Source of the DNA: Gemmatimonadaceae bacterium | GTDB taxonomy: Bacteria; Gemmatimonadota; Gemmatimonadetes; Gemmatimonadales; Gemmatimonadaceae | NCBI GenBank assembly: GCA_051859245.1 | Contig: JBHYGA010000008.1 | Span: 1 to 64,000 of the forward strand | Reading direction: 5' to 3' | Length of the DNA stretch: 64,000 nucleotides | Shown: piece by piece, positions 47,757 through 64,000 of the stretch | Layout: the number at the start of each line of letters is the position of its first letter | How positions within the stretch are numbered: the stretch's first letter is position 1 | Made by a program: the position numbers and the translations under genes | Notes under the pieces: generated by a model | The model's database searches: none | What the model was told of the DNA's origin: nothing | Seen by the model: the letters and a program-made list of their open reading frames with translations, nothing else

Positions 47757-49307
47757 GTGGGCACGATTCTTCGGCTGGCCCTGCAGTCGCTGCGCAGTCG
47801 CGCGTTCACCTCGTCGCTCACCGTGGCGAGCATTGCGCTCAGCGTGACGTTGCTCGTGGGCATTGAACATGTGCGTAGCGGCGTGCGCGAAAGTTTTGCG
47901 GGCACCATTCGTGGTGTGGATCTCATCGTTGGTGCGCGCGGTGGATCGCTGCAGGTGTTGCTGTCCACGGTGTTTGGTATTGGTGCGTCGTCCACGGCGA
48001 TCAGCTACGAAACGTACGAGCGCTGGGCCGAACATCCGGCGGTGGCGTGGTCCATTCCGTTTGCGCTTGGCGACAGTCATCGCAGTTATCGCGTGATTGG
48101 CACCACGAACGAGTTTTACGAGCGGTATCGTTTTCGTGAAGACGGGCGCGTGACCTTTGCGGAGGGGCGTGCCGCGGAAACGGATACCGATGTGGTACTT
48201 GGTGCCGAAGTCGCGTCGCGTTTGGGTTACACGCTGGGTTCGCCGATCGTGGTGACGCACGGATTGCAGGGTGGCGGCATCGCGGACCACGAGGCGAATC
48301 CGTTTACGGTGGTGGGTATTTTGAACCGCACGTTCACGCCGATTGATCGCGCGATTTACGTGACGCTCGGTGGTATTGAAGCGATGCACGAGGATTTTGA
48401 GCAGGCGCCGAGTGCGGCGCCTGTGGTGCCGCCGGCGGGGACGCCGAGCATGCCGGGGGCGACGCCGCCGGTGATGCCGGGTGCGGAGCCGCCGCCGGTG
48501 ATGCCTGGCGCTACGCCGCCTGCAATGCCGGGATACGAGCCCCCGCCGGGCACGCCAACCATGCCGGGTGCGACGCCGCCGGTCATGCCGGGTGCAACGC
48601 CGCCGGTCATGCCGGGATATGAGCCGCCACCGGGCACGCCCACGATGCCCGGTGCGCAGCCGCCGGTAGCCTCAGAAGCGCGTCCGACGGCGTCGGTGTC
48701 GAGCGATTCGGCGCCGGCGGCCGACGACGACCACGCCGACCACGATCACGAAGCCGAACAGGTCTCGTCGTTCATGGTGGGGACGAAGAACCGATTCGAG
48801 GCGCTGCAGCTGCAGCGCGAAATGAACACGGATCTGGTGGAGCCAGTCACGGCCATCATTCCCGGCGTCGCACTCGGCGAACTGTGGCAGAACATTTCCA
48901 GCGCCGAAGTCGGCCTGCGCATTGTGGCCATGTTTGCGGTGGCGATTGGCCTCACGGGTATGCTGGTAGCGCTGTACAGCTCACTCGACGCGCGTCGCCG
49001 CGAAATGGCGATTCTGCGCGCGGTTGGCGCGGGTCCGCGCACCATTGTGTCGTTGCTCGTGATTGAATCCGCATTGCTGGCGTTTGTTGGCTGCGTGCTT
49101 GGTGTGTTGTTCGTCTATGCGATTCTCACGCTGGGGCAAGGCGCAATCGAAGCGCGTTCCGGTGTGCATCTTGCGATTCGCGCACTCGGCGCCACTGAGT
49201 GGAAGTATCTCGCGCTCGTGCTTGGCGCCGGCACGCTGATTGGTTTTGTGCCGGCGATCAAGGCGTATCGTATGTCGCTCACGGATGGCTTGAGTCCGCG
49301 CGCCTGA
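47757..49307 (+). CDS. FtsX/MacB-family ABC permease (ZrgC-like) with a Met/Pro-rich insertion
   Basis: DLIVGARGG.LQ.LL..VF, LGDSHRSYRVIGT, THG...DH...PF, RRREMAILRAVGA and IPGVALGELW. Confidence 0.85.
   Translation: MGTILRLALQSLRSRAFTSSLTVASIALSVTLLVGIEHVRSGVRESFAGTIRGVDLIVGARGGSLQVLLSTVFGIGASSTAISYETYERWAEHPAVAWSIPFALGDSHRSYRVIGTTNEFYERYRFREDGRVTFAEGRAAETDTDVVLGAEVASRLGYTLGSPIVVTHGLQGGGIADHEANPFTVVGILNRTFTPIDRAIYVTLGGIEAMHEDFEQAPSAAPVVPPAGTPSMPGATPPVMPGAEPPPVMPGATPPAMPGYEPPPGTPTMPGATPPVMPGATPPVMPGYEPPPGTPTMPGAQPPVASEARPTASVSSDSAPAADDDHADHDHEAEQVSSFMVGTKNRFEALQLQREMNTDLVEPVTAIIPGVALGELWQNISSAEVGLRIVAMFAVAIGLTGMLVALYSSLDARRREMAILRAVGAGPRTIVSLLVIESALLAFVGCVLGVLFVYAILTLGQGAIEARSGVHLAIRALGATEWKYLALVLGAGTLIGFVPAIKAYRMSLTDGLSPRA
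48450..48668 (+). repeat. Eight MPG-initiated coding repeats (MPGATPPV / MPGYEPPPGTPT)
   Basis: Visible in both DNA (atgccggg...ccgccg) and protein. Confidence 0.9.
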
Positions 49308-49430: not shown

Positions 49431-51086
49431 ATGTCGTCACGTTTGTTCACGCGTTCGGGCATCGCCCTCGCGTTTGTGATTGCGGCTATGCCGCTCGACG
49501 CGCAGGGCCCGGGTGGTCGCGGTCCGGCTCGCCCGATTGTCAAAGCGCCTGGTGCCACGCCCCCCGCGATCGATAGCGCACCGGAATACGTGCGTCGCTC
49601 GCCCGCTACTGATGCGGGCATCAATCGCATTTATGAAGAGGGCATGCAGCGCTCGCAGGTGGCGAAAATTGCGCAGGTGTTGCTCGACTCGATTGGTCCG
49701 CGACTCACGGGTTCGCCCAACATGAATCGTGCGCAAGATTGGGCCGTGTCGTTGCTTAAGAGCTGGGGCGTGGACGCAAAGAAGGAACAGTACGGCACAT
49801 GGAACGCGTGGAAGCGTGGCTCTGCGTATGCATCGCTCACCGCGCCGCGTGTGAAGACACTCGACGCAACGATGTTGTCGTGGAGTGGCAATACCGGCGG
49901 ACAGTTTGTTGAAGGCGGCGTGGTAATTCTTGAGCCGTATCAGACGCTCGAAGAGTTCCGTGCGTGGCTGCCGAAGGTGAAGGGCAAGATCGTTCTAACT
50001 GGCGGACCACGATTGTCGTGTCGATCGGCCGAGCAGATTGGTTTGTTCGGAATGCCGAGCACGATTGAAGCGCTGAACCTTGAGCAGAATCAGCTCACGG
50101 CCACGTATCGCGGACTCAATCAGCGCGTGCCCACGTTCTATCAGGATGTGAAAGACGCCGGTGCACTGGCCGTCTTTGAATCGAGCTGGTCGGCGTACTC
50201 GGGCGTACAGAAGATCTTCGGATCGCCGCGCAACAACCCGCTGCCCACGCTCGACATTGGCTGCGAAGATTACGGCATGCTGTTCCGACTGGCGCAGAAC
50301 AACCAGGGTCCAGTTGTGAAGTTGATGGCCGAATCGGAGTCACTCGGCGAACAGCCGGTGTTCAATGTGGTTGGCACGATCAAAGGCTCGGAGAAGCCGA
50401 ACGAATACGTGATGCTCTCTGCGCACTATGATTCGTGGGAAGGACACTCGGGCGCCACCGACAATGGCACGGGCTCCGTGACCATGCTCGAGGCGCTGCG
50501 TATTCTGAAGACGGTATATCCGCAGCCGAAGCGCACGATCATCATTGGGCTTTGGAGCGGTGAAGAGCAGGGCCTCAACGGATCTGGCGCGTATTCGGCC
50601 GATCATCCGGAAGTGATTGAAGGGCTGCAGTTCCTCTTCAATCAGGACAACGGCACAGGCCGCGTGGTCAGCATGGGCCCGGGCATTCTGCCCAAGAACG
50701 GCGCGCGTTTGGCGCAGTACATGTCGGCGATGCCCTCAGACATCACGCAGTGGATTCGCCTGTCAGGCCCTGGCGGCATTGGTGGTGGCACCGACCACGT
50801 GTCGTTCGCCTGTCGCGGCGCGCCGGCGCTGACGCTCAACGCACTGTCTTGGGATTACAGCAACAGCACGTGGCACACGCAGCGCGACTCGTACGACAAG
50901 CTGATCATCGACGACGTGAAGAACAACGCGACCCTCACGGCGATGCTGGCGTACATGGCGAGCGAAGATCCGGAGCGTAGCTCGCGTGAGCTGATCAGTC
51001 CGCTGCCAACGGGGCCGAACGGTCAGCCGATCACGATTCCGAACTGTGGTACGCCGACGCGCAGTTCGCAGGGGAACCGAAGATAG
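49431..51086 (+). CDS. Secreted M28-family peptidase (carboxypeptidase Q-like)
   Basis: IGPRLTGS, SAHYDSW, GATDNGTG, GEEQGL, TDH and HT..D; signal peptide; AGGAG RBS. Confidence 0.9.
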   Translation: MSSRLFTRSGIALAFVIAAMPLDAQGPGGRGPARPIVKAPGATPPAIDSAPEYVRRSPATDAGINRIYEEGMQRSQVAKIAQVLLDSIGPRLTGSPNMNRAQDWAVSLLKSWGVDAKKEQYGTWNAWKRGSAYASLTAPRVKTLDATMLSWSGNTGGQFVEGGVVILEPYQTLEEFRAWLPKVKGKIVLTGGPRLSCRSAEQIGLFGMPSTIEALNLEQNQLTATYRGLNQRVPTFYQDVKDAGALAVFESSWSAYSGVQKIFGSPRNNPLPTLDIGCEDYGMLFRLAQNNQGPVVKLMAESESLGEQPVFNVVGTIKGSEKPNEYVMLSAHYDSWEGHSGATDNGTGSVTMLEALRILKTVYPQPKRTIIIGLWSGEEQGLNGSGAYSADHPEVIEGLQFLFNQDNGTGRVVSMGPGILPKNGARLAQYMSAMPSDITQWIRLSGPGGIGGGTDHVSFACRGAPALTLNALSWDYSNSTWHTQRDSYDKLIIDDVKNNATLTAMLAYMASEDPERSSRELISPLPTGPNGQPITIPNCGTPTRSSQGNRR

Positions 51087-51101: not shown

Positions 51102-51190
51102 TAACTGCCGGGGCCCGTCGGCGCGCTGCGCCGACGGGCCAAGGGCACGAAGAACACAAAAGGACACGAAAACTGCAACGGCAACAGATT
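51102..51190 (+). repeat. REP-like element, left arm (perfect 13-bp stem at 51112-51140)
   Basis: taactgccggggcccgtcggcgc-gct-gcgccgacgggccaagggcacgaa...aaggacacgaaaactgc; matches 11089-11168. Confidence 0.75.
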
Positions 51191-51246
51191 CTGAGGGGAA
51201 CTGCAACGGGCCACTGCTTCCTAATCGAATTTGCGATGCGTTCTTA

Positions 51247-52401
51247 TCAGCTTGGGCGCTTAGGTGCTCTCTCCAAACGGTAACGCTCGACCGAGAGCAG
51301 GTCATCCGCATTCCGACGAACTCCAAGCACGTAGTCGCGTCCGATTTCCATCACTTGCAAGCCGTTAGGTAGCACGACCGTCGCGATAACGGCACCTGAG
51401 GCGTTCAGCACTAGACACTCACGTGGTTGCGCTGTAGGCACTTCCTCGAACAACTCGACCCACAGACCATCGTTGTAGTCGGCGTATAAGCTGCTGTAGT
51501 AGGGTCGTGTCTTGGGACGCCACTTACTGTCCAGCTCCGCAAGAGCCAGCTCGCGATCTGCCCCAGGAGAGACCTCGCGAACCAGCCTTGCTCGTTCTGC
51601 TGCGATCCGCGACTCCCTCCAAGCCGTCTCTTTGATGGCCAACGTCGTGGATCCGGTGCTTCCGGTGCGAGTATCGAGCCACGACAGCTTTCTCTCGCCT
51701 GAGTCTCCGAACCACAGTTTCTCATAGGCACCAACAACGTGGAGATGGTGACCCAGCCGTTGTTTAGAGCCTAGCATGCCAGCTGCTGCGTTCGACGTCG
51801 CGACTGTAAGTGAGGTCGACGCCAAGCGCGGACCAAGCGACGCCGTGACCCGCGTCCGAGTGGGGTCCAGAAGCACGTACTCCACCGAATCTCGACGAAC
51901 TCCGGTTACCACCTTCGCTTCAACCGTCCAGCTACTCGTGCGCATTCCCCAGAACCGACCATTCCCTAGAACGCCGCCGATAGTGACTTTAGCGCCGTCG
52001 AGCACGGTCTCTCGGCGCTTCTCACGAACTGAGTCACTGTCGAACCAGACTGCTCGACGTCGGTCGTAAACGACGATTGCGTCGTTCAAGCGTCGCAGGA
52101 ATGCGATGGAACCGACTTCGTTTGGCCCCTCGCCGCGTCGTGTCGCGATCTGCAGAGGCTGACCGTTCGCGTCGAAGATGCGCAGTTCTCCTGATTGTCT
52201 CTCTGCGACTAGAAGGCGTCCGCGATTGAGTTCGCTAACCGCAACAATGGCGCCGAAATTTTTCGCAGGCGATCCATCATCCTCTATTCGAAGAGTCGGT
52301 GCAGACGAAACTTCGTAGCGTTGTATCGACTGTGCGGCGAGCGGGCGCAAGCCCATCCAAGCAAACAGTAGAAGTAAATTCGCACTTAAAGGTCCGGTCA
52401 C
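51247..52401 (-). CDS. Secreted 6-bladed beta-propeller-like protein
   Basis: GTG start with GGAG RBS, signal-like LLLLFAWMGLRPLAAQ, repeated blades with GRRGEGPNE-like motif (TRRGEGPNEV), PYYSSLYAD...GLWV, VLNASG and EIGRDYVLGV. Confidence 0.75.
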   Translation of the reverse strand: MTGPLSANLLLLFAWMGLRPLAAQSIQRYEVSSAPTLRIEDDGSPAKNFGAIVAVSELNRGRLLVAERQSGELRIFDANGQPLQIATRRGEGPNEVGSIAFLRRLNDAIVVYDRRRAVWFDSDSVREKRRETVLDGAKVTIGGVLGNGRFWGMRTSSWTVEAKVVTGVRRDSVEYVLLDPTRTRVTASLGPRLASTSLTVATSNAAAGMLGSKQRLGHHLHVVGAYEKLWFGDSGERKLSWLDTRTGSTGSTTLAIKETAWRESRIAAERARLVREVSPGADRELALAELDSKWRPKTRPYYSSLYADYNDGLWVELFEEVPTAQPRECLVLNASGAVIATVVLPNGLQVMEIGRDYVLGVRRNADDLLSVERYRLERAPKRPS

Positions 52402-52429
52402 GATGACTCCAAGACGAAGAAGAATGAGC

Positions 52430-52474
52430 AAAAAAGAAAATGCTTGACAAAGATGCAGGGGGGGGGAGTATCGT
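52430..52474 (+). promoter_or_regulatory. Putative sigma70 promoter with a poly-G (G9) spacer for the peptide gene
   Basis: A-tract 52430-52440, TTGACA 52444-52449, 19-nt spacer containing G9 (52458-52466), TATCGT 52469-52474. Confidence 0.55.
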
Positions 52475-52561
52475 CGGCAACTCATCTCACCCTGAGATGT
52501 AGTCGAAGCGTTCACTCAGGGGCGCTCCGAAGCTGATCCTCTAGACTGTCAGGAGTAGTCG

Positions 52562-52786
52562 ATGACGTTGAGACACTTTGGTTTTGCATTGTCGATGGCG
52601 GTCCTCAGTTTCGCATACACCGAAACCGCTCAAGCAGCGGACGAGGGTCCATGCCCTCGCATTACTTACGACTCGACAAACGGCTCGTGCAGCAACACCG
52701 GCGGAACGACGTGCAAGACCTGCAAGTACAACTGCAGCATCACCGGTGATGACGTCGAGATCGATCGCTGCCCGGCAGTCGAGTAA
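52562..52786 (+). CDS. Small secreted cysteine-rich peptide (74 aa, 6 Cys)
   Basis: AGGAG RBS 6 nt before the ATG; Sec signal ending AQA|A; mature ADEGPCPRITYDSTNGSCSNTGGTTCKTCKYNCSITGDDVEIDRCPAVE. Confidence 0.75.
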   Translation: MTLRHFGFALSMAVLSFAYTETAQAADEGPCPRITYDSTNGSCSNTGGTTCKTCKYNCSITGDDVEIDRCPAVE

Positions 52787-52866
52787 GGCCATAGCGATAA
52801 AGCATTTCTCAAGCACACTCTGAAGCCTGCGTCCACGAACACTTTAGCTCAGGAACTACATCACGC

Positions 52867-53523
52867 GTGCGCAACAAGGAAAAACGTTCACGTTTCGATC
52901 GCATCCTGAGTGTTGCAACGGTCTTGGCATTTGCGACCGCGATCGGATTGTTCATTCGTCCGAGTGCTCCGCTTGGACGCAGGCTGATGAGCTATGTAGA
53001 GATACTGGAAGTTCAGTGGAAGGCACCAAAACGTTGGGCCGAGCTTTCTCTTGCTGCGCTGCCCCTGCAGGAAGGAGCAGCCAACTATCAAGTGATTATG
53101 ATCGCTGACTTTCAATGTGCGTTTTGCGCTGAGAGTGCACCGATCGTAGACTCCGCAATAGCACTTGGAATGAGCGTCGGATACCTGCACATGCCAGCTC
53201 CATCGCGCGCTTTAGCAGTCAGGGCTGCTGAGCTCAGTGTTTGCGCAGCCGCAGGTGGCGAGTTCAAACGGGCGTTTGACCACTATTTCTACACACTCAA
53301 TTGGGCGAACGCGGATTCCGTGGAGCTCATTCTGCCTAATGTCGAAGACCCGCGCTTCCAATCGTGTGCGCAATCAGATAGCGCGAAGCTTGAAGTGGAA
53401 CGATCGATTCGAGTTGCCTCGGAGCTTGGCGTTCGAGGTACTCCGGTCTTCGTCTCAAGAACCGGATTGATTCGCGGAATCCCAAGTCTGAAAGAGCTTC
53501 AGGCAATCGCCGGGGCGCAGTAA
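52867..53523 (+). CDS. Membrane-anchored DsbA/BdbD-like thiol-disulfide oxidoreductase
   Basis: N-terminal TM helix, ADFQCAFC active site, AA..S.CA, second Cys (FQSCAQ) and GVRGTPVF cis-Pro loop. Confidence 0.85.
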   Translation: MRNKEKRSRFDRILSVATVLAFATAIGLFIRPSAPLGRRLMSYVEILEVQWKAPKRWAELSLAALPLQEGAANYQVIMIADFQCAFCAESAPIVDSAIALGMSVGYLHMPAPSRALAVRAAELSVCAAAGGEFKRAFDHYFYTLNWANADSVELILPNVEDPRFQSCAQSDSAKLEVERSIRVASELGVRGTPVFVSRTGLIRGIPSLKELQAIAGAQ

Positions 53524-53689
53524 TGTCAGCTTAGCTACGAAGGTGCGAATGGAGATAGTCACCATTCGGGAGCGACGGCAAACATCTTCGCTGAATGCTG
53601 GGCCTCTTGGACAAGGTGTAAGTCAATCCAAGAGACCAGACTCATTCAGATGAAAACTGAACGGTTCGCGACTTGCTTCCAAGCCGCGA

Positions 53690-53778
53690 GCTGCTTTCGG
53701 GTTTTTGTAGTTCGCAGTTTTCGCGCCTTCGCGTTCCCTGCGGCCCGCCCTGCAGGAACGTTGACCGGAGGGCAGTGA
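53690..53778 (-). repeat. Diverged REP-like arm in opposite orientation, just after the ruvA stop
   Basis: Minus strand tcactgccc...gcgggccgcagggaacgcgaaggcgcgaaaactgc shares actgcc, cgggcc and aagg..cgaaaactgc with the 11089 and 51102 arms. Confidence 0.45.
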
Positions 53779-54375
53779 CTACCGGCCCAGCACCACCAGC
53801 GCCGCGCGCACTGTACTCGCGACATCACCCTGCGCGCCAACTTGCCGCACCGCCGCAAGCGCCTCGGCTTCGCCATAACCGAGTGCAATAAGCGCACGCA
53901 CCGATTCGTTATTCGGCGCAGCACCGCCCGCCCGCGCGCGCGACACATCACCGCCACCGGCCACGAGCAAGTCGTCTACCTTCTCGGAAAGATCCAGCAC
54001 AATCTGCTCGGCTTTACGCTTACCCACGCGCGGTACGCGCATGAGTGTGGTGATGTCCTTGGCGCGCAGCACTTCGACTACTCGCTCGGCGCCAATGGTT
54101 GAGAGAATGCCCAGCGCCAGCGACGGACCTACGCCCTTGGCCGTGAGCACACGACGGAATACATCGCGTTCCAGTCGCGAGACAAAGCCGTATAGATCCC
54201 ACGCATCTTCACGCACCGCGAGATGTGTATGCAACGTGAGTTCCGCGCCGTCAGCCGGGAGCTTCTCGAAAACGGAGAGCGGAATATGCACTTCGTACCC
54301 CGTGCCACCGCTCGTTTCGATTTCGATGAGCGCAACAGAGCGATACACCAGACGACCAGTCAGCAGCGCAATCAT
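53779..54375 (-). CDS. ruvA: Holliday junction DNA-binding protein RuvA
   Basis: MIALLTG, GTGYEV, VREDAWDLYGF, GVGPSLAL, VPRVGKRKA and ALIALGY. Confidence 0.95.
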   Translation of the reverse strand: MIALLTGRLVYRSVALIEIETSGGTGYEVHIPLSVFEKLPADGAELTLHTHLAVREDAWDLYGFVSRLERDVFRRVLTAKGVGPSLALGILSTIGAERVVEVLRAKDITTLMRVPRVGKRKAEQIVLDLSEKVDDLLVAGGGDVSRARAGGAAPNNESVRALIALGYGEAEALAAVRQVGAQGDVASTVRAALVVLGR

Positions 54376-54902
54376 GGGCGGCGCGTGGGCAACTTGAGTG
54401 AAGACAACGAGGGGAGCCGCGGCGCGAGCAGCGCACACAGCGCCGCAGCGACACCGTCGGCCGCGTCGGCGGGCTGCGGCGGAGACTTCAGGCGAAGCAA
54501 CTGCGCCACCATGTACTGCATTTGTTCTTTCGTTGCGGCGCCACGTCCGACAATGGCCTTTTTGATCACCGCGGGCGGGTACTCCTCGATCGTGACACCA
54601 GCCAGTTCACCGGCCAGCAGAATCACACCGCGCGCGTGGCCCAATACAACAGTAGTGCGCACATTCTTGGCGTAGAACACGTCTTCAACAGCCATTGTTG
54701 ACGGTGCGTGACGCGCGATCAGTTCCGTCACACCTTCATGAATGTCGCGCAGCCTCGCCGCCAACGGCTGCTCGGCGCGCGTCCGAATCACACCACATTC
54801 AATGAGCTCCGGTGCACCGCGAACACCGCGTCGCACCACACCGTACCCGGTGACCGCCGTGCCCGGATCAATGCCGAGAACGACGCCACCGGTGAGCGTC
54901 AC
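54372..54902 (-). CDS. ruvC: Holliday junction resolvase RuvC
   Basis: LGIDPG...TGYG, AVEDVF, LGHARGV, G.G.A.KEQ and DAADG.A. Confidence 0.95.
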   Translation of the reverse strand: MTLTGGVVLGIDPGTAVTGYGVVRRGVRGAPELIECGVIRTRAEQPLAARLRDIHEGVTELIARHAPSTMAVEDVFYAKNVRTTVVLGHARGVILLAGELAGVTIEEYPPAVIKKAIVGRGAATKEQMQYMVAQLLRLKSPPQPADAADGVAAALCALLAPRLPSLSSLKLPTRRP

Positions 54903-63582: not shown

Positions 63583-64000
63583 TTAGCGCCGAGCTCCCGT
63601 CCAGATCGCAACAATCCCGCATGATCCACCTCCTGTCAGCGGGATGAGTTCTGCAGGCGCATTCGCTGTACTCGGATAGATCTCAATTGCGGCTACAGAT
63701 CCGCCTCCCACCAACTCGTCAACCGTCAACCGCCTGTCGGCCGGCTCGGGCCCCGAGTAGTTGGGTGGTCGACGCTCGCGCGCCATTTCATCACCTGGTT
63801 GAAGCACGTCGTTCATTCGTACACCATCAAGCAGTATGGTCATCGCGCATGAACCTCGACCCGAAAGCGTCGAGCGCGAACGTTTGCCCTCTCGACGTAC
63901 CGTGACGTACCGTTTGCCTGCGAGCGCGTAAGAAGTCTGCATGGGTTTACGCTGATCCAGTTCCTCCGGCGTAATGAACTCGCCCACGATTGCACCATTC
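63583..64000 (-). CDS. C-terminal part of a TonB-plug-like domain protein (runs off the window)
   Basis: GEFIT.EEL, C....LDG, IEIYP....PAE and CG.V.IWT ending; the frame is open to the window edge. Confidence 0.65.
   Translation of the reverse strand, partial: NGAIVGEFITPEELDQRKPMQTSYALAGKRYVTVRREGKRSRSTLSGRGSCAMTILLDGVRMNDVLQPGDEMARERRPPNYSGPEPADRRLTVDELVGGGSVAAIEIYPSTANAPAELIPLTGGGSCGIVAIWTGARR

Follow-up and report, generated by a model that had tools for sequence, protein, structure and literature searches.

In the mau cluster (MauA, MauB, MauD and MauE), MauA is a conserved protein with a quinone cofactor derived from a conserved Trp pair and MauB a propeller of seven blades; small NVEALA proteins neighbour six-bladed propellers in Bacteroides, and sublancin is accompanied by BdbA and BdbB. 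Among bacteriocins, the bacteroidetocin (class IIf) loci of Bacteroidales combine a double-glycine leader, an ATP-binding cassette (ABC) peptidase-transporter and a five-transmembrane protein with proven toxicity (PMC6671954), and in TMcin clusters the peptide disulfide is formed by a cluster-encoded DsbA-like enzyme, TmcD, which some clusters lack (PMC13712780). The promoters of porA in Neisseria meningitidis and tp0126 in Treponema pallidum carry a poly-G tract between the -35 and -10 boxes and work best at a 17-nucleotide (nt) spacer (PMC7864442). We report here on three adjacent genes in a 64,000-nt stretch of DNA from a Gemmatimonadaceae bacterium (the window; contig JBHYGA010000008.1, positions 1 to 64,000), which are predicted to encode a secreted six-Cys peptide, a membrane-anchored DsbA-like thiol oxidase and an exported six-bladed beta-propeller.

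These genes constitute a recurrent three-gene module that is real and undescribed. We read it as a mobile, polymorphic cell-envelope complex of a mini-protein and a propeller with a probable on/off switch, and give this reading a probability of roughly 0.4; function, binding and switching are inferred from sequence throughout. An initial annotation of the window had put the trio forward as an undescribed system, and this stands: no named system was found, no description of the trio turned up in the literature searched (a corpus outside which most subscription journals and supplements lie), the trio co-occurs across Gemmatimonadota, and the peptide is conserved.

A recurrent peptide, oxidase and propeller module

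The peptide gene (52562-52786, + strand) encodes a 74-residue precursor of a secreted mini-protein. Its hydrophobic N-terminus closes in an A-x-A site, as expected of a Sec-type signal, leaving a mature peptide of about 49 residues that holds no Trp and no His; cysteines occupy positions 31, 43, 51, 54, 58 and 70, and an AGGAG motif is placed 6 nt ahead of the ATG. A word-index search with the peptide returned only the query itself, and a hidden Markov model (HMM) search was needed to find relatives. A homologue with 34% identity adjoins the best DsbA match in a relative (G035), and the profile made from these two sequences found 33 representatives, 28 of which were aligned (two long chance matches and three sequences with long N-terminal extensions were omitted). 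Five Cys and one Tyr are invariant in this alignment and the sixth Cys is almost so; this conservation marks the 74-residue open reading frame (ORF) as a genuine gene, belonging to a six-Cys family without a name. The family matches none in Pfam, NCBIfam or the PDB, and the Pfam model for NVEALA (PF14055) matches 0 of the 28 members at E<=0.1. The mature peptide is modelled with confidence (predicted local distance difference test [pLDDT] about 91); the predicted structure is a small beta sheet. A fold search for defensin or knottin likeness gave Tudor/SH3-like domains as its best matches (top Z 3.3), and Foldseek gave nothing at E<=0.001, so that no clear structural relative emerged. An Atlas query with the peptide produced leads below 0.8 only, from Acidobacteriota clusters, and a search across 301 Acidobacteriota genomes produced one weak match. 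Eight orthologues from one genus differ at 312 synonymous versus 150 non-synonymous codons, counted pairwise. Across the 28 members of the family the net charge of the mature peptide lies between 0 and -6, and in all 21 cassettes compared it lies between -1 and -8. Loci L081-L088, all from one genus and several of them in single-contig genomes, carry a strongly conserved, more basic form of the peptide with an adjoining lipoprotein gene, no DsbA gene and differing genomic surroundings.

The second gene (52867-53523, + strand) begins 80 nt after the peptide ORF. Its product has an N-terminal hydrophobic anchor, a CAFC motif, a GTP loop and two additional Cys; it passes the cut-off for Pfam Thioredoxin_4 (E=1.8e-5) and has weak PDB matches to DsbA-like chains. 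By its sequence it would belong to the DsbA/BdbD type (thioredoxin fold, CxxC, cis-Pro loop and membrane anchor). The same genome holds four other Thioredoxin_4 genes and one VKOR gene, which makes the cassette oxidase an extra enzyme; no DsbB was found in this genome. Because the propeller has one Cys and the peptide six, the peptide is the obvious candidate substrate of the oxidase within the cassette.

The propeller gene (51247-52401, - strand; 384 residues, GTG start at 52401) is transcribed divergently from the peptide gene across 160 nt. These features agree in coordinates and motifs with what the initial annotation had described, from the signal-bearing six-Cys ORF and the anchored CAFC/GTP thioredoxin-fold gene to the secreted propeller across the intergenic region. 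The propeller has a Sec-type signal and no lipobox. It matches Pfam DUF5128 weakly (E=0.032; 13.9 bits, below the cut-off of 22.9), and 22 of its 41 aligned relatives match that family at E<=0.01; the single relative of the propeller that bears an organism name comes from a Gemmatimonas sp., in agreement with a host in Gemmatimonadota. An AlphaFold model based on the 41-row alignment (pLDDT 86.5) aligns with NHL six-bladed propellers (Z 16.7, root mean square deviation [rmsd] 4.7, 263 residues aligned) and with DUF4221 (Z 16.2, rmsd 4.8, 304 aligned), and BF0058 structures also match; the predicted fold is a six-bladed, DUF5128/NHL-like one. Only Gly, Pro and Glu residues are invariant in the alignment, which fits a scaffold role.

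We evaluated the linkage of the three genes by using a filter for ORFs with a signal and several Cys, a crude heuristic of our own; of the 38 ORFs that pass it in 4.7 Mb, most are off-frame noise. In the genome of the window, all four DsbA paralogues found with tblastn from the window DsbA have such an ORF beside them. Among relatives, the DsbA search gave 65 matches in 40 genomes; 40 regions (41 of the 65 matches), hand-picked toward the same genus and G035, were combined with the four own loci into a set of 45, whose tree contains a supported housekeeping clade of 13 (99/98). A co-oriented signal-and-Cys ORF lies within 300 nt of 25 of the 32 non-housekeeping DsbAs and of 0/13 housekeeping DsbAs, and a propeller lies within 1.5 kb of 16 of these 25 peptide-DsbA pairs (0/13 for housekeeping DsbAs). 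Seven DsbAs were left without a peptide by the filter; inspection shows a 10-Cys peptide at one of them, and at three a filter match, in one case doubtful, lies within 2 kb. Nine clear peptides occur among the top 20 DsbA loci taken without selection. Together with the further Thioredoxin_4 genes, these ratios uphold the view that the oxidase is dedicated to the peptide. The cassette peptides fall into many families that are unrelated to one another; they have 6-11 Cys, and in 19 of 21 the count is even. The usual gene order in relatives is co-oriented, peptide-DsbA-propeller; the divergent layout is thus correct for the window and does not hold as a general trait.

The window peptide's own family has profile matches in 18 of the 401 genomes of the phylum. 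The peptide-anchored set comprises 12 loci (the own locus, the G035 loci and four weak matches were left out): DsbA and propeller are both present in three and DsbA alone in one; the other eight, all from one genus, lack DsbA within about 5 kb, which makes the oxidase dispensable in that genus. In these eight loci a conserved lipoprotein of about 390 residues follows directly behind the peptide; Atlas places it near DUF5128/NHL/TolB-like clusters (0.89-0.90), a lead as to its fold. Since these loci keep a propeller-like lipoprotein, the propeller-type partner may be more constant than the oxidase. In BLAST against the propeller set, the top three matches of the window propeller, divergent in sequence though it is, are the propellers of the three other cassettes with the same peptide family; in a tree of 73 propellers, four of the five peptide-family propellers fall into a moderately supported group of 12, within which they do not form a clade of their own. 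Across 21 triplets, nearest neighbours agree above chance (peptide-propeller 6/21, p=0.001; peptide-DsbA 4; DsbA-propeller 6). A complex prediction for propeller and mature peptide gave no answer (score 0.00, mark 0.32) and was used neither way.

It could be that peptide and DsbA are the sole unit and that propellers are neighbours only by virtue of shared insertion hot spots: no propeller is seen within 1.5 kb of nine of the 25 peptide-DsbA pairs (contig borders cut some of these loci short), about 51 of the 55 propellers of this genome have no peptide beside them, and the insertion site of the cassette takes lone propellers. We consider this improbable, in that propellers follow the peptide family across genomes and the eight loci that lack DsbA retain a propeller-like partner. 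The association of propeller and peptide put forward in the initial annotation is upheld by the 16 of 25 pairs and by the family propellers as top BLAST matches. A second alternative casts the peptide as a metal-binding or redox protein, or as the small subunit of an amine-dehydrogenase-like enzyme, as in MauA/MauB with MauD. It has on its side a Cys-rich, acidic, exported peptide and a mau-like layout of propeller, small disulfide-rich subunit and Dsb-like gene. It seems very improbable to us: the oxidase partner and the even Cys counts suggest disulfides, not free thiols; the window's mature peptide, with neither Trp nor His, is less than half the size of MauA; no Pfam, NCBIfam or PDB family matches it; and the propeller matches six-bladed folds.

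Two further cassettes of this genome (G000) vary the arrangement. At G000:C4:485331-488048 two tandem 8-Cys peptides accompany a propeller and a DsbA that lies in two open frames and is possibly frameshifted, and at G000:C1:1096125-1099001 a DsbA and an 8-Cys peptide are followed by two secreted plug-domain-like genes in place of the propeller.

An exchange slot and many propeller paralogues

The cassette occupies the interval between an M28 peptidase gene (49431-51086, + strand) and ruvA (53779-54438, - strand), host genes outside the module, and this interval holds just the three genes. At the left border of the insertion lies a copy of a genome-wide intergenic repeat (51104-51207). The guanine-cytosine (GC) content of the cassette is 0.556, versus a genome mean of 0.620, which places it among the lowest 0.3% of 1880 bins (30/60 at 52981-53040, the segment that the initial annotation had counted). 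The slot is empty, with the two genes at most about 1.5 kb apart, in seven of 11 genomes of the same genus, and has inserts in the other four. In the closest relative (G002) it contains one unrelated propeller bracketed by two copies of the intergenic repeat, and in another relative of the genus it contains two propellers. On this comparison of sequences the slot is an exchange site and the cassette a low-GC mobile insertion, in keeping with the foreign look first ascribed to it.

The intergenic repeat family has about 27 sites in the genome; a link between it and propellers was rejected (2/27 sites). Also rejected was a DsbA-like match in the M28-ruvA slot of G012, which is a fusion to what we take to be a membrane antiporter-like protein and not a cassette DsbA. 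Upstream of the slot, at 47757-49307, lies an ABC permease gene; inside it is a proline-rich tandem repeat, apparently shorter in G002.

The genome encodes 55 DUF5128-like propeller paralogues, 19 of which lie within 2 kb of another (background 6.4%). About one third have a lipobox-like motif by a crude test, and the lone propellers have a host-like mean GC of 0.616. A link of propellers to TonB-plug-like genes was rejected (2/55 propellers, versus a background of 1.8%). Immediately beyond the end of the window, a plug-like gene divergent from a propeller gene has a further G9 run close to its start (window 63583-64000 and G000:C8:64421-65789), and a secreted 130-residue, 6-Cys ORF lies upstream of a propeller at G000:C1:904900-905292, where there is no DsbA match.

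A candidate poly-G promoter switch

The intergenic region between peptide and propeller contains a run of nine G's (52458-52466), absent from the initial annotation, that is common to two divergent candidate promoters. It falls in the spacer of a candidate sigma70-type promoter for peptide and DsbA (52444-52474, + strand; TTGACA at 52444-49, 19-nt spacer, TATCGT at 52469-74), just upstream of whose -35 box lies an A-tract resembling an UP element (52430-52440, + strand). On the opposite strand it falls in that of a weaker candidate propeller promoter (52450-52480, - strand; TTGCCG at 52480-75, 19-nt spacer, CATCTT at 52455-50), a consensus match only. With two fewer G's the spacer would be 17 nt. 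By consensus match, the window promoter has the layout of porA, a homopolymer between -35 and -10, and the run is a candidate slipped-strand switch. A standard promoter scan of the window, in which spacers of 16-18 only were allowed, found nothing, and the 5' leader folds no better than its shuffles (z -0.34).

Only two of the 14 G/C runs of at least 8 in the genome follow TTGACA, and both sit at peptide-DsbA cassettes. In the 400 nt upstream, 12 of 32 cassettes have a run of at least 7, compared with 0/12 housekeeping DsbAs (background 2.7% in the loci, 0.24% in the genome). A motif-first scan for TTGACA followed by at least eight G's found 50 sites in 37 of the 401 phylum genomes, and a module gene (peptide, DsbA or propeller) lies within 1.5 kb of 23 of the 50, versus 6 of 300 random segments from the window's own genome; 23 is a lower bound (the locus L142 was missed by the filters), and it includes two cassettes known beforehand. 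The run is followed by TAnnnT at 29 of the 50 sites (chance 2.6%), with spacers of 11-20. Since kin genomes are not independent samples, the significance of these counts is overstated. We regard the poly-G promoter class as statistically supported and the switch at the window locus as a candidate, both at the level of sequence.

A difference in run length was seen only in G385, between two paralogous promoters that are near-identical save for G12 versus G9; the window locus is covered by one contig, probably from the source itself, and by no RNA run among those listed. Two cassettes of G035 have runs of G8 and G12, in promoters too diverged to be alleles. Some long G runs lie at G035 contig ends and may be sequencing artefacts; the internal runs are framed by promoter boxes. 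At loci L127, L145 and L146, G385 has one TTGACA-poly-G promoter in three copies, each together with the beginning of a lipoprotein gene, and the runs are G12, G9 and G9. In the window's own genome, a second cassette (G000:C1:528471-531281; DsbA, 8-Cys peptide and propeller) lies behind a TTGACA with G10 and an 18-nt spacer, flanked by two similar copies of another gene; a nearby fragment (about 526446-526790) is presumably tyrosine-recombinase-like. The G9 promoter at L142:1498-2532 precedes a gene for a redoxin-like protein of a different type, a secreted ORF rich in Cys and a lipoprotein gene.

A shared switch bears on a toxin-immunity explanation, according to which the peptide acts as a bacteriocin directed at a receptor and passes out of the periplasm, for example via TolC (the known exit of the E. 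coli heat-stable enterotoxins), the propeller is its immunity protein, and lone propellers are orphan immunity genes. Were toxin and immunity to share a switch, immunity would drop together with the toxin, exposing OFF cells to ON siblings. The hypervariable peptides, the 55 propellers (19 of them in tandem, at most 2 kb apart) and the lone propellers in the same M28-ruvA slot of G002 and G012 all suit this explanation, as does the company that dedicated oxidases keep with bacteriocins (PMC6671954; PMC13712780). The strong conservation of the peptide in one genus and the host-like GC of the lone propellers do not. A classical bacteriocin is unlikely, since the peptides are acidic and the cassette has neither a transporter nor a double-glycine leader nor a regulator; without such a leader or an ABC peptidase-transporter, the window locus lacks the transport traits of a class II locus. 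The term bacteriocin-like, used in the initial annotation, is weakened by these features and by one tract that would switch peptide and propeller together, and we hold the toxin-immunity explanation to be rather unlikely.

Proposed function and comparison with known systems

In the reading that we prefer, a switched envelope complex of mini-protein and propeller, the precursor would be exported by Sec and, as its signal implies, cut down to a mature form of about 49 residues. Three disulfides would then be closed by the membrane-anchored DsbA, which the host VKOR would re-oxidise, to give a small rigid beta mini-protein, a step suggested by the linkage, the Cys conservation and the structural model. 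The exported six-bladed propeller would hold this mini-protein, its cognate partner, as a small subunit or as a bound ligand, and the two may make up a binding structure that varies between lineages, lies in the periplasm or at the surface, and is under selection by phages, predators or neighbours. The G run between the -35 and -10 boxes would slip and so toggle peptide, oxidase and propeller jointly in some cells.

Several observations weigh against this reading. With respect to the switch, 20 of the 32 cassettes have no run of at least 7 in the 400 nt inspected, the G385 promoter pair precedes a different gene and not a module gene, and the poly-G promoter motif is widespread in other phyla (metagenomes and GTDB), where, among the matches listed, DsbA or propeller matches occur at 0/160 poly-G loci and peptide matches at four, by filter only. 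With respect to the partnership, the lipoprotein of the eight DsbA-less loci is matched by neither Pfam nor the propeller HMM, the family propellers lead in BLAST by a narrow margin (85.5 versus 83.6 bits), and the window propeller is not sister to the three other family propellers in the tree. Co-divergence is weak overall (Mantel, peptide-propeller r=0.15, p=0.046; peptide-DsbA r=-0.05), and co-inheritance of neighbours alone yields such patterns without binding. Surface exposure of the window propeller is not evident, given that it has no lipobox. Finally, a Cys peptide neighbours only about four of the 55 propellers of this genome, which implies that most propellers work, if at all, without one.

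The lone propellers have a place in a possible, though doubtful, further reading, a phase-variable ligand-binder. Here a large library of unrelated mini-proteins stapled by disulfides, each with its own oxidase and matching propeller, would serve self/non-self recognition among free-living bacteria under slipped-strand switching, and the dozens of lone propellers per genome would be a repertoire for mini-proteins made by other cells, a logic akin to that of plant peptide-receptor pairs. Alternatively, the peptide might be a strain-specific pheromone caught by the propeller as an extracytoplasmic receptor and relayed to a sensor encoded elsewhere. A stable small ligand that varies between lineages and is conserved in one genus would suit such signalling, as would a propeller without conserved catalytic residues. 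We think it quite unlikely, in view of a propeller that has no transmembrane tail and of a window cassette that has no kinase, regulator or membrane-spanning signalling part (relatives were screened in part).

The module, which contains no tailoring enzyme, is common in a phylum that is abundant but little studied. Its many unrelated disulfide scaffolds of 45-70 residues, with matching oxidases, may be useful mini-protein frameworks that are easy to express, and it would give a first functional handle on the DUF5128-like propellers, present in 55 copies here. A 2025 review describes phase variation in soil and ocean as a knowledge gap (PMC11868660), and the promoter is a concrete candidate for phase variation in free-living bacteria.

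Compared with the systems described at the outset, the locus resembles bacteroidetocin loci in that a small multi-Cys peptide gene lies beside that of a dedicated thiol oxidoreductase in a diderm host, and differs from them in its Sec-type signal, lack of a transporter, acidic peptides and six-bladed propeller (the word propeller does not occur in the main text of PMC6671954). It shares with TMcin a cluster-encoded DsbA-type enzyme that is lost at some loci, here in one genus (PMC13712780). TMcin and sublancin are Gram-positive systems with a protease, ABC exporter or glycosyltransferase, none of which is present in the window cassette. The Bacteroides DUF5128/DUF4221/BF0058 propellers (PDB 3s9j and 4raa) have the same six-bladed fold, are exported and have small secreted neighbours; unlike the NVEALA neighbours, the window peptide family matches no Pfam family, and no paper containing NVEALA or DUF5128 was found in the literature searched. 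The mau cluster likewise combines a small disulfide-rich exported protein, a propeller partner and a dedicated thioredoxin-like gene, whereas the module has a variable, Trp-less 49-mer without homology to MauA and a six-bladed fold. The candidate promoter has its G run between -35 and -10, as do porA and tp0126; those serve outer-membrane proteins of pathogens, whereas the present run, known from sequence, is common to two divergent candidate promoters of a free-living bacterium. By analogy, then, the module resembles the oxidase-bearing bacteriocin clusters but lacks their defining transport features, and its promoter resembles that of porA.

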